Origin: Convolutriloba macropyga
Taxonomy: Eukaryota
Length of the DNA stretch: 64,000 nt
Assembly: GCF_964194025.1 (NCBI RefSeq)
Contig: NC_134479.1
Span: 21,576,001-21,640,000, forward strand
Direction of reading: 5' to 3'
Part shown: in pieces, positions 8,241 through 24,501 of the stretch
Layout: each line of letters starts with the position of its first letter
How positions within the stretch are numbered: position 1 is the stretch's first letter
Program-made: the position numbers and the translations under genes
Notes under the pieces: generated by a model
Database searches by the model: none
Told to the model about the DNA's origin: nothing
The model's input: the letters and a program-made list of their open reading frames with translations, nothing else

Positions 8241-9260
8241 AACAAGAGCATCTTCATATCTAAGAGAATGATTTATCATGAGACAAGATCATACCTAATC
8301 AGAAAATTTTGGATCAAATTTTACACGAGGAAATTTAGCAGCAAAGTTTGCGTTTCGAAAGAAAAAATAAACGCGAGATTCGAAAAATTGGTTGTTTTTG
8401 CTTCTGATAAAATTTTTTTGATTATGTTGTTTTTTATCTAATCGAGAGATGCTAAGTAACACGAGAAACTGAAAAACAAAAAGAAAAACAAATTTACTTT
8501 AATTGCTAGATGCATTTGTACATTACTTGCCACTCAAAATGCAATAAGAAGTGGATTGTTAGACTATCTAATACCTCAGTAGAACTTGCAACTCAAATGG
8601 TAGAACACAACCGCGGAAAAAATTCAGCCATGTTACTTTGAAAGTACAGAATGTCTGACATCGACAAATATTAATTGTTAATAAAGGCTATACCCAATTG
8701 TTTGATAAGAAGATAATTGTGGGAAGGTTGTTTTAAACAAAATGAAAGCGCGAACGAAAGATTCAATCCCTAAGAAAAAGTTTATGGAAAAAGGCTGTTG
8801 CAAGTTTTTAAAGTCAGCCTCAAGGTCCTTTTGTCTCAATTGATTATCCGCAAAGATGAGAGTGGTTCGCAACCAAATACTTGTCACGCAAGGAAAGAAT
8901 CCGGAGTAATTTTGCCAATTTTGTTATTACCAGTTTTAAAAATTACGTTAAAAAATCATATATCTTGTGCTTTCATAGTATAAAAGGATTTTGCAATTGA
9001 TTTGTGTGAAAGTTTTGAGTTGTAACTTTGTTCCTTTTTCTTTCGTTTAAAATAAAAAAAAATCCAAAAAAGTTGAAGGATTTTCTTAGGGCAATTTATA
9101 TTGACAATCGAAACTGTTTTGCTTGTCCAGCAGGTGTAGACGTAGGCAGGTAGCTGGAACTATGGTAAAATTCAGAAAATTACAGTAACACTGAACCAGT
9201 TTTGAATTCAATCAACATATAAAATTAGTTTTCAGCTTTGTTAGTAAATAAAAGCCTATA

Positions 9261-9420
9261 AGTAATGTGTATATGGTGACCTCCGCACCTTAGAGCCGAG
9301 CTACAGTCACCATATACACATTACTCTATTTCCCTTTGTTTTTTCCACTATATTTCCATTTTTCCGCACAAATAAAAATCTATCATTTTTTTGACTAAAT
9401 TTACTAAATTTGCTAATATT
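9261..9420 (+). repeat. Left terminal inverted repeat of the Maverick
   Basis: Reverse complement of 23836-23995, 7 mismatches in 160 bp by manual alignment. Confidence 0.95.
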
Positions 9421-12400
9421 AATTGTAAAACCTAAATTCACCATTACTATCTCTAATACCTTTATTATCAAATGGATCAATAGCTATTTTATATTGTTCC
9501 TTAGTTTCTAAGTGATGTATATTGCTATCAATAGTATAATTAGTTACATATTTACTTTTACCTTCATATATAGCACTAGTATAATCTTCCAAAATAATTT
9601 GGTTTCTAATAGTGGCTTTAGTTATACCTTTTAACTTTTTCTCTTCTTCTCTTTTAACAGTATTGTAACAATATGCTTTAGCTTTAAGGAAACATGCTTC
9701 TATAATAGTATCCTTAGGTAATTCATCCTTCATCTTACCCAACTCATTATTATGTAAAATATCTTTTATCTTATTCATTTCAGTTTCTATATTACTATCT
9801 AAAGGAATATTCATGTTTATAAATATACTATCTGTATCTGTGTAATGATAACTACAATCTAACTCTTTCTCAAAGTAATCATATATAGCTTTATACATGA
9901 ATAGTTTAGCTTTTTCTAATATAACAAATCCAATATAATTAAACTTATCTAATTTAACATTACCTCTTGTTTTATGTACGGCTACTAGATCATCATCGAA
10001 ATCTACAGAATATTTAAAACCAATATTTTCTACTAATTTAATATATATATCTACATCATTAACTAACTCTGCTTTCTTTCTACTGCTTTCTCTTCTTAAT
10101 ATTAAACTCAATATAAGGCTTTAACCGCTCACTCTTACTATACTCTAACTTTTGCTTAATTGTAATATCTTCCAACTTCAAACCACTAGCTCAATACCAA
10201 TCTAACATCTCACCATCAATTACATAATCTACCTTATCCGTTAACTTTAACATTAACTTCTCATTGGGTTTATATCCTTTCTTTTTATTTACATTTTGAT
10301 AATCTGTAAACTGTCCAATGTTTGCCCTAGTCTTTTCAGGAAAGAATGGATACTTGTTTGTTTTCTGTTTCAAGTCATCATTTTACTTTATATCAATAGT
10401 GTAGATATAACCCTTAGTAGAGCTAGAGCTAGTATATACCAGATCACATACTTTGATCTCACCAGTAGGTAAAGCTTGAACCATAGCAGAAGCATATAAT
10501 GAGTTGAAGTCTAAATATTTTAGATAATTCTCTTTCCCTGTATACTCAGGATCTATTTCTTTATTTTTACATTCTACATGACAACCACCTAATACTGAAG
10601 CTAACCCACCTCTAATACCATGTTGTATTGTATCATAAATATTAACTGTATTTTCTTTATAATACTTAAGTCTAACATTAGTATATTTTCAACCCACGAG
10701 TTAACCCAGGAGTAGAATATGTGTACCATGGATCTATTTCATAGTATTCTAAACACATAGCTCTAAATTTCTCAAATACATCAACTGATAACAATACATC
10801 TGTTTTAAGATACAACATCATATAATCCTTTATTGTCTCACATTTAATATCATTCCAACAATCAATTGCTTGCTTATATTCTTTATCTGTAATACCACTT
10901 TGTTTCAACTTAGAAAAGAATGCTTCCTTAGGTGATAATGTTGTTTCATGTAGTTTAACTATACTATCAAACCATTCATATGGGAATATACCTTTACGTC
11001 TTTCTAAGCCACATTTATTTAATGTTATACATTCTTCATTACTCAATGTCTTACTTATAGCATCTAAGCTAAGTGGATGGAAGAACCTAAACATATCTAA
11101 AGCTTTAGCATAACCCATATCAATATTAATATAATTCTCATCAATTTTAGTTAATACTTTTATTCTAATGGGACTCTGTCCATGGTGTTTCTCACCCATA
11201 TTCTTTGCTAGTTTAGTTATAAATAGGTGATTATCATAATTAGAAGAATTAAATGCATATATTGGTACGAATGTATTCTCAGCTTGGAGGTTACATTTTT
11301 TGTGAGCATATCCTCTAAATTTACCATTTAGATGATCATGATCTCTAACGATGTCTTCACCCAAGTTCTCATTACAATAATAACATCTACTATATAACGG
11401 AGTAATACTATCTTTTTTCAATGGAATATTTATACTAAATATATCTTTAAATAATTTATTATAATGATCTACTCTATCCACAAACCAATCAACTACTTAA
11501 TCACCACAGTTATATTCATACTTATCTTCTAATATATCAGGATATTCACTTTTTATATATAAACCAAAATCAATAGGAATGTGTTTACCATCTTTTATTT
11601 TACATTCAAAATCATAATACATTGCAAATGGTACTCTGTTTTTATAATGGAACTTATCAAACTTTAGATACTCATCTTTATGGAATGTTCTTCTACCTAT
11701 ATGTTTCTGTGTATTACATAAAACCAAATGTTTATTTAATGCATCTTCTGTTCTAAATGATACACAACATTTTAAACATGGATAACATTTATGTTTAGCT
11801 GATGTTCTTAATAGGAATGATACATTTTTACATAGGGAGTAATGATTATACCAATATAATATTTTGCACCCAACTAGATCATGATGATTAATTAATACAG
11901 GAGTAATAGTTTTATTCTTATTTAGATTGAATACATTAAATAATACTTTATGTTTATTTATTTCTTGTATTTTCTTTAAGTGATAATAATCATATGGGGG
12001 TGTAACTCCTATTGGTAATTTTATCTCATTAATATATTCTGGTTTATTATAATTACTATATCTACTGGGATTATGTGGCGCAGGATGTAGATATGCAATT
12101 AGACACCATAGTAAACATTTATTATCATTATTATGTATATTAAGTATATATCTAGACGTGAATTGTAGCTCTGTAGTACAACCACCACTTGGATAAAACC
12201 TATGAATACACATTGTCCTTTTAACAAATCGTTGCATGCTGCATCCAGATTGATTCATCTCTTGTTCCTTCATTCTAGACTCAAGTTCTCCATTCAATAA
12301 ATCCAAGTCATGTGCACCATTATATTGCCTAGTCATTATTTTAAAGGTGAATTCGTTTTCTTCTAACTTATCTTCTGTAGGTTTTGTATACTTAACTACA

Positions 12401-23707: not shown

Positions 23708-23835
23708 AAAGTATAAAAAAATAAAAAAAAATATCAAAAAAGAGGGAATCGCTCTTTAAGAGCGAAAAAGAGCGATCTTTCTACTAGGGGATCACACCGA
23801 ATAAGAGTGAATCGCTCTTAAAGAGTGATTCGCAA

Positions 23836-23995
23836 AATATTAGCAAATTTAGTTAATTTAGTCAAAAAAATGATTGATTTTTATTTGTGCGGAAAAATGG
23901 AAATATAGTGGAAAAAACAAAGGGAAATAGAGTAGTGTGTATATGTTGACTGTAGCTCGGCTCTAAGTTGAGGAGGTCACCATATACACGTTACT
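23836..23995 (-). repeat. Right terminal inverted repeat of the Maverick
   Basis: Inverted match to 9261-9420, followed by TSD CCTATA. Confidence 0.95.
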
Positions 23996-24034
23996 CCTAT
24001 AAAACAACCATCAACGTTCATTTTGCTGTTTTAG

Positions 24035-24501
24035 GTGGGAATTCGGTTGCCGAAGCTGTTTATTCCGAAACCCCGATGCTCGTGTTTCCAGGTTTTGCGG
24101 ATCAACCAGCAAACGCCGACCATTTAGTCAGAGAGAAAATGGCTTTGCCTTTAGTCGAACTAACACAGCCAGAAATATCTTCAAAATTGGCACAAATATT
24201 GTCACCTGAAATTTATTCTGATTGTAAAATGCGACTGAAAAAGAGCAAAGAACTCATGACGTCATTGGGAGGATATGACAAAGCGGCAGATGTTGTTGAA
24301 CAAGTTGCAAGTGGTGAAATAAAAGTTATTGATGCACCAAAACTTCTAAATATGGAACAAGTTTACAATCGCCAGTTGGTTTATTACCTGACCATTTTTA
24401 TACTTATGTTCTCTGTGTTTATATGGATGGTTTACGCGAGTTGTCGAAAGATTTGTTGCACTTCGAAGAAAAAAGTAAAGAAGGAGATTAAGCAAGAATG
24501 A
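24035..24501 (+). CDS. UGT copy A, exon 2 (spliced protein 527 aa)
   Basis: Acceptor TTTTAG|G; splicing restores HAGGNSVAEAV..PMLVFPGFADQ; C-terminal TM helix and Lys-rich tail; 1117+467 bp = 528 codons. Confidence 0.93.

Follow-up and report, generated by a model that had tools for sequence, protein, structure and literature searches.

A dispensable fold-back at the ends of a Maverick family in Convolutriloba macropyga and its possible origin by template switching

Background

Each end of a 14.7-kb Maverick on contig NC_134479.1 of Convolutriloba macropyga carries a 65-nt unit in which the tip of the element is followed, after a short spacer, by an inverted copy of itself. The locus raises the question of what such a fold-back does at the end of an element of this type, and whether the element needs it. 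Parvovirus rolling-hairpin telomeres possess a self-complementary end, give a single-copy bridge in the head-to-head dimer and form concatemers with alternating junctions. The initial annotation of this DNA had drawn on that likeness, proposing that a displaced strand could prime itself or protect its end, that the inner arm provides a second integrase end, and that an endonuclease domain of the polymerase could resolve the hairpins. We examined the element within a 64-kb stretch of DNA, hereafter called the window, and carried out genome-wide pattern searches of the 1.18-Gb assembly.

Results and discussion

Anatomy and gene content of the element

The element in the window is a Maverick, and is so called because it contains a broken gene for a protein-primed DNA polymerase of family B (PolB), an integrase and a double jelly-roll (DJR) capsid gene; in addition, its terminal inverted repeats (TIRs) start with AG and it is flanked by a 6-bp target-site duplication (TSD). 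The features are listed in Table 1.

Table 1. Features of the window element (window positions) and locations of the palindromic derivatives
Feature	Position	Strand	Basis or remark
Left TSD copy, 6 bp	9255..9260	+	identical to 23996-24001
Right TSD copy	23996..24001	+	identical to 9255-9260
Left TIR, 160 bp	9261..9420	+	96% complementary to 23836-23995
Right TIR	23836..23995	-	pairs with left TIR, 96%
Outer arm (element tip)	9261..9280	+	positions 1-15 common to five end classes, 16-19 variable
Spacer, 25 nt, GC-rich	9281..9305	+	two motifs, positions 22-25 and 33-37 from the tip
Inner arm (inverted tip copy)	9306..9325	+	20/20 pairing; stops exactly at base 1
Right 65-nt fold-back unit	23931..23995	-	17/20 pairs after decay
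Protein-primed family B polymerase (PolB) gene, split into several frames	9419..13118	-	DNA_pol_B_2 matches, ORFs
Endonuclease VII-like (HNH-type) domain within PolB	11287..11394	-	PF02945, E 3.8e-5
SG-motif, N-terminal region of PolB	12241..12249	-	SGW in 6 of 12 sister stretches
Retroviral-type integrase	15291..16127	+	PF00665, E 1.1e-4, under curated cut-off
Double jelly-roll (DJR) capsid gene	18374..19816	-	PF21738, E 6e-22
Probable packaging ATPase fragment	20480..20998	-	22% identity, E 3e-6, to a Pox_A32-type ORF
Palindromic derivatives	C1:19201480-19215999, C1:49870596-49884290, C2:44342438-44359490, C3:24133023-24147723, C3:82781323-82793669		two PolB ends

In two PolB fragments PF03175 was matched just below the cut-off because the gene is broken, and the Endonuclease_7 match scored 23.9 bits against a cut-off of 23.6. 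The SG-motif noted in the initial annotation was located, in what we take to be the terminal-protein domain, and SGW is present in 6 of the 12 sister stretches examined. For the protein-primed polymerase, 1579 relatives were counted. The packaging ATPase fragment had no Pfam match and was assigned by weak similarity only. For the integrase, no match was obtained among viral contigs, and a further viral-contig search gave one weak locus.

As in the animal Mavericks described in the accessible text of PMC8097293, a pPolB, an integrase, a DJR capsid, a 6-bp TSD and AG...CT ends are combined in an element of 14.7 kb, and the 160-bp TIR falls within the range of 46-1447 bp given there. Unlike them, the element has a tip that reads AGTAAT and a 20-bp inverted copy of the tip 25 nt inside. 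The tip thus lacks the (AGT)2 or (AG)3 end motif, which is common among animal Mavericks though not universal, according to the same text.

The fold-back itself was confirmed at both ends, the right one with its decay mismatches, and the spacer has the same orientation relative to each end. The GC content of the spacer is 60%, against 29% for the whole element, and the left 65-nt unit is predicted to fold as single-stranded DNA with -20 to -22 kcal/mol. Besides the terminal unit, one inverted repeat of at least 20 bp with a loop of at most 60 nt was detected in the window (14956-15002); it is a perfect 22-bp repeat with a 3-nt loop, situated in an ORF that lies upstream of the integrase. Within a group of repeated short palindromic motifs just inside the right TIR (23752-23825), a 14-bp inverted repeat is found. 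The host sequence around the element is probably an intron of a UDP-glycosyltransferase gene (23996-24501 and 9200-9260; PF00201 match), and a likely splice acceptor follows at a short distance from the insertion.

Matching of the two arms across the family

The palindrome is a family-wide feature, since the two-arm pattern was found at 260 genomic sites, against 0 for the reversed control; 237 strand matches, representing 236 sites, continue into the inner flank. A subset of 144 distinct ends was fetched, of which 103 have a full inner arm; both ends of many elements are included, and the ends are therefore not independent. Most were selected by a BLAST search with the window TIR, or else through patterns in which the outer 14 bases of each arm were fixed; conservation of these bases is therefore partly circular, while the inner six pairs were left free. 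Positions 1-15 of the tip were also seen in ends reached through PolB.

Compensatory changes in the stem, which the initial annotation had suggested looking for, are present. The inner six bases were matched across the arms in 81 of the 103 full-arm ends, in four versions (41, 32, 5 and 3 ends); a fifth version, seen in 3 ends, was matched at pairs 16-19. Single mismatches were present in 16 full-arm ends, and 6 were mixed. Pairs 15, 17, 18 and 19 vary on both sides, and pair 17 takes all four Watson-Crick types. For 21 hand-picked distinct ends a covariation of 0.155 was calculated, a value inflated by relatedness of the ends and obtained with 4 pairs varying on both sides; it was equalled in 0 of 500 shuffles, and slid controls gave at most 0.026. 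For the same 21 ends, the values of two further measures, which count pairs or types, were attained in 51 and 66 of the 500 shuffles. What is kept is the symmetry of the arms, not the sequence of the inner six pairs.

A 26-nt spacer carries arm versions B/B in 8 ends (one with a single mismatch), A/B in 2 and A/A in 2, and one 25-nt spacer carries three matched versions. With different matched versions on the same spacer and flank, both arms must have changed and the middle must have stayed unchanged, which excludes a single crossover, since this cannot alter both arms yet leave the middle. Mixed ends were outer-A/inner-B or half-way in 6 ends belonging to 3 elements and the reverse in 0 of 103, a 3-to-0 direction that is not significant, one of the three being a palindromic element in which two ends represent one event. 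A tree of the PolB C-terminal region from 90 natural stretches was poorly resolved, with long decay branches and scattered end types, and gave no polarity.

End classes and the optional inner arm

Thirty loci were picked through PolB, blind to their ends (two of the F loci overlap). Ten proved to have full arms, 15 bulged arms (class F), 4 degenerate arms (G) and 1 an interrupted arm (H). The tip-plus-motif pattern, consisting of the tip and GAGCC, identified 425 ends, 344 of them with TACT further in; all 100 matches listed of the 425 had a length of exactly 37 nt from the tip to the end of GAGCC, with gaps of 16-20 nt allowed. This number and the 260 full-arm sites were obtained with different patterns. 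From the tip-plus-motif lists, 20 ends picked for unusual sequence gave 10 more members of class H and 10 of a class I, which contains no inner arm. Median fold energies for the first 70 nt were -23.3 kcal/mol for full arms, -14.5 for F, -9.5 for H, -7.9 for G and -6.4 for I, and the respective median z values were -9.3 (103 full-arm ends, 30 shuffles per end), -3.8, -2.9, -1.4 and -1.0.

Perfect TSDs flank 2 of 3 class-I end pairs, and in 35 of 38 end-pair rows the TSD matches at 5-6 of 6 positions. One F and one G element examined are called recent because their TIR pairs are 99.7% and 100% alike, respectively, and a mapped class-I element can be aligned with that of the window over a stretch reaching from PolB to the capsid region inclusive. 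The inner arm is dispensable: insertion took place in classes G and I with a weak or missing fold-back, and in F and H with an imperfect one. The palindrome expected by the initial annotation in sister copies is therefore widespread in the family, yet imperfect or absent in subfamilies F, G, H and I.

Tip positions 1-15 and positions 22-25 and 33-37 are common to all five classes. The tip together with the two spacer motifs likely has the layout of a protein-bound origin, in which the motifs would be putative sites for an origin protein. In class I (L135-L144, positions 20-37) the two fixed motifs can pair as a small stem with a 3-7 nt loop.

At least three further Maverick families in the same genome (L231-L250) have (AGT)2 ends and short imperfect TIRs of about 60-80 bp. 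Thirty PolB loci of other-family Mavericks stopped short of the ends; 10 were extended, and 9 of these gave ends. Terminal fold-back was not found in 15 ends of these 9 elements, with 70-nt z values of -3.1 to 1.6 and inverted copies of the first 12 nt that matched at 9/12 positions at best. The other-family ends start with (AGT)2.

Two further peculiarities were observed in the TIRs and flanks. In L024, L025, L027 and L034, TIR bases 31-68 (or 31-160) are copied again in tandem at about TIR position 155, with shared breakpoints. In L005/L010, L103/L104, L003/L004 and L135/L136 the outer flanks are mutually inverted over 55 to more than 600 bp, and look as if the right end had copied the left host flank via a panhandle; in two of the elements with inverted flanks a further end unit follows, bearing the true TSD.

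Spacer orientation, solo units and candidate resolving enzymes

The orientation of the spacer was the same in all 104 rows surveyed and among the 100 matches listed, one of which was a coincidence. Searched genome-wide, the flipped-spacer pattern was found at 0 free ends, as compared with 236 sites at which exact arms continue into the inner flank, and its 6 matches comprised 5 host-flank coincidences and 1 bridge. This argues against terminal resolution of the parvovirus type, as envisaged in the initial annotation. Three apparent shared-unit junctions and two flip candidates were rejected as ordinary ends, at which the TSD or host flank starts like the inner flank.

The inner arm does not appear to serve as a second integrase end either, since no solo unit with a TSD was detected. 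The pattern used, which by our estimate would catch roughly half of solos, matched 2 sites, both ends of a single element. One extra unit is located 210 bp outside a rearranged end.

The endonuclease VII-like match in PolB is real, but the suggested connection with the hairpin is not supported, for the domain is present in 12 of 12 stretches, hairpin-less ones included. Such domains have been described as homing-endonuclease insertions (accessible text of PMC11071308). A HUH/Rep nickase gave no Pfam match in the 19 window ORFs or 4 palindromic-arm ORFs, a search which remote homologues may escape.

Wholly palindromic derivatives

Among 12 elements mapped, 5 are inverted dimers of the PolB end (Table 1), with TSDs matching at 6/6 positions. 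Their arms measure about 6-7.5 kb, and neither integrase nor capsid was seen in the derivatives mapped. The arms extend about 2 kb beyond the sequence found in the window element, and this additional part encodes a Pox_A32-type ATPase (E 3.6e-6; 22% identical to that of the window) and a cysteine-rich ORF. One centre sequence, which forms a hairpin, recurs, with 51 half-site matches at 37 loci and 14 facing pairs 6-7 nt apart. In the conserved palindrome centre (L178:1501-1546) the first six bases of the tip are found on both arms, 16 nt apart.

Since the palindromic derivatives occur with H ends as well as with full-arm ends, a perfect terminal hairpin is not needed, and the existence of whole-element palindromes indicates that this lineage switches templates. 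A fully palindromic linear DNA would regenerate itself via a hairpin monomer through strand displacement alone. Palindromic phi29 genomes with two identical ends are said, in work by Esteban et al. from 1997, to pass through hairpin forms, and a deletion derivative of kalilo is reportedly a precedent for a palindromic terminal-protein replicon. Perhaps the lineage replicates in two modes, by protein priming at the tip and by self-priming from the folded 65-nt unit, and has given rise to a satellite without capsid and integrase. The satellite would be a linear DNA of 7 kb, capped by protein at one end and closed as a hairpin at the other, and would enter chromosomes as palindromic dimers and tetramers; we offer this tentatively, and rate it as possible rather than probable.

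A four-arm insertion with a single-unit bridge

A 26.2-kb insertion (C15:22358679-22384841) shows the arrangement tip-arm-centre-arm-single unit-arm-centre-arm-tip, in which centre and single-unit bridge junctions alternate. Its arms are of 7 kb, one inverted arm having a 2-kb deletion, and the bridge unit has inner flank on both sides. The host flanks differ and the TSD matches at 5/6 positions. The insertion is old, and not a duplicated-read artefact, because in its arms 37-51 changes per 2740 columns are private; among the public-contig matches listed, none spans the bridge. No second bridge was found in the genome, a looser pattern giving 5 sites (1 true, 1 known coincidence and 3 due to chance) against 7 for the control.

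Extension of a 3' tip folded on the inner arm would be expected to leave a bridge of this kind, from which we judge that self-priming by a folded end likely happened at least once. Thus, the self-priming of a displaced strand that the initial annotation had proposed gains one head-to-head bridge with a single 65-nt unit, but the origin of this bridge also fits a recombination event in which the inner arm of a palindromic dimer was joined to the outer arm of a second dimer. Such an event is quite conceivable, though we would put it below even odds; it concerns the bridge only and is compatible with the remainder of the template-switch explanation presented below. The arms have 20 bp of perfect homology at hand, and near the centres 11 of the 16 informative sites place arms 1+2 together versus 3+4 (4 group 1+4 versus 2+3, with 1 other). 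Against this, the regions near the tips show no comparable excess (5/5/5), the centres mirror each other about the bridge with a variant shared by arms 1 and 4, and conversion near palindrome centres after insertion would yield the same 11 sites. The informative sites do not favour fold-back copying, and the 11/4/1 distribution leans towards two joined dimers or later conversion of the arms.

Proposed origin of the fold-back

We propose, with a probability of roughly 0.55, that the 65-nt unit is an origin for protein-primed replication in which template switching copies the tip into the inner arm, with occasional self-priming. The tip and the spacer motifs would form the origin, and synthesis would start at the tip by protein priming. 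Now and then the nascent strand would pair its inner arm with its own 5' arm, and its own first 20 bases would be copied into the inner arm until the template ends at the terminal protein, at base 1, whereupon the polymerase would go back to the original template. As a by-product, a 3' fold-back would arise on the displaced strand and might occasionally prime synthesis, giving head-to-head dimers that share one unit; this self-priming would be a side route, outside the normal cycle.

Template switching would explain the flush end, the multi-base matched changes, the unflipped and unchanged spacer and the series of arms from none to perfect. Intramolecular switching is known to homogenise arms without inverting the spacer (accessible text of PMC8604942 and PMC8794818). 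The priming, the switching and its direction, like the origin of the bridge, are read here from integrated, decaying copies. The abundance of perfect-arm ends counts against the template-switch account, because selection for the hairpin would also produce them.

Selection of the hairpin where it is present, with the folded strand protecting the 3' end or a frayed end being repaired from the inner arm, and with switching supplying the variants, appears to us rather doubtful. It is in agreement with the strong covariation of the arms, the abundance of full-arm ends and the partial fold-backs kept by F and H (median z -3.8 and -2.9), and fold-back repair has a precedent in a terminal-protein replicon, namely at Streptomyces telomeres (accessible text of PMC5449611). 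Yet members of classes G and I were inserted with scarcely any fold-back or with none, the 15 ends examined in 9 elements of the other Maverick families of this genome are without one, and compensatory patterns can arise by template switching alone (accessible text of PMC8794818).

A further reading, in which no fold-back is involved and the arms are two oppositely oriented sites where a dimeric protein (integrase or polymerase-terminal protein) binds double-stranded DNA, is unlikely. The tip of a Maverick must be recognised by integrase and polymerase, and over their outer 14-15 bases both arms hardly vary; however, complementarity is retained despite free variation of the inner six bases, a pattern not predicted by sequence-specific binding, class I has no inner arm, and TSD-flanked solo units cut at the inner arm were not found. 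An obligate parvovirus-like rolling hairpin, its ends resolved by the PolB endonuclease domain, is very improbable and largely refuted, for although the hairpin is flush with the terminus, one concatemer has alternating junction types and an equal model has been proposed for protist virophages and PLVs (accessible text of bioRxiv 10.64898/2026.07.28.741278), free ends with a flipped spacer number 0 against 236 sites, hairpin-less sisters exist, the endonuclease domain does not track the hairpin, the 19 ORFs scanned contain no HUH/Rep match, and the SGW motif is kept in 6 of 12 sister stretches.

Relation to known systems

A hairpin at a Maverick-like end is already known in kind. In Halocafeteria virophages and one PLV subtype, mostly lacking a pPolB, a palindrome is situated in the TIR beside the TSD, as in the window element, and hairpin self-priming was proposed, with an accidental origin as the alternative (accessible text of bioRxiv 10.64898/2026.07.28.741278). 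These elements are from protists and were screened with gaps of at most 10 nt, whereas the present one is an animal pPolB Maverick with a 25-nt spacer; covariation, loss in sister lineages and one bridge junction were tested here beyond the accessible part of that work. The initial annotation had allowed that terminal hairpins might already be documented; this holds for the protist elements but, as far as the accessible sources go, not for animal Mavericks. The terms "hairpin" and "palindrom" are absent from PMC8097293 (text and supplement table) and from the accessible text of PMC8502044 and 10.1101/2023.08.22.554363. For animal Mavericks, no report of fold-back ends, bridges or snapback forms was found in the literature searched, subscription journals and bioRxiv supplements lying outside it. 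Nor did we find an earlier report of the tip-flush form with arm tracking, sister loss, the bridge concatemer and the palindromic family.

Quasi-palindrome correction resembles the present case in its multi-base matched changes in both arms and its uninverted spacer (accessible text of PMC8604942 and PMC8794818). It differs in that one arm here forms the terminus of a linear replicon, where copying would stop at base 1. With parvovirus telomeres the family shares the self-complementary end, and its one concatemer with a single-unit bridge and alternating junctions may be a further likeness; unlike those, the family shows no flip/flop, no Rep/HUH gene was found in the ORFs scanned, the hairpin is dispensable, and the ends are integrase substrates with a TSD.

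Protein-capped linear DNA with a terminal fold-back or hairpin is also found in Streptomyces telomeres (PMC5449611) and in pELF1, a plasmid with one hairpin end and one protein end (PMC6863802), according to the accessible text of both. Unlike Streptomyces, pELF1, kalilo and phi29, the palindromic derivatives described here constitute an integrated, multi-copy chromosomal family. As far as the available descriptions of those terminal-protein replicons go, the conserved centre and the ATPase-like gene of its own also set this family apart.

Conclusions

Self-copying of Mavericks has so far been a model and not an observation (scheme cited in the accessible text of bioRxiv 10.64898/2026.07.28.741278). 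In this family, hundreds of natural end variants separate what is needed, namely the tip and two motifs at fixed distance, from what is optional, namely the fold-back. They also call for caution, in that compensatory changes in a terminal palindrome are by themselves no proof of a selected hairpin. The fossil junctions, that is the single-unit bridge and the fixed-centre palindromic dimers, predict specific free DNA forms. If the tentative reading of two replication modes and a satellite is true, rolling-hairpin-like concatemers would be produced by a protein-primed polymerase without a Rep protein.
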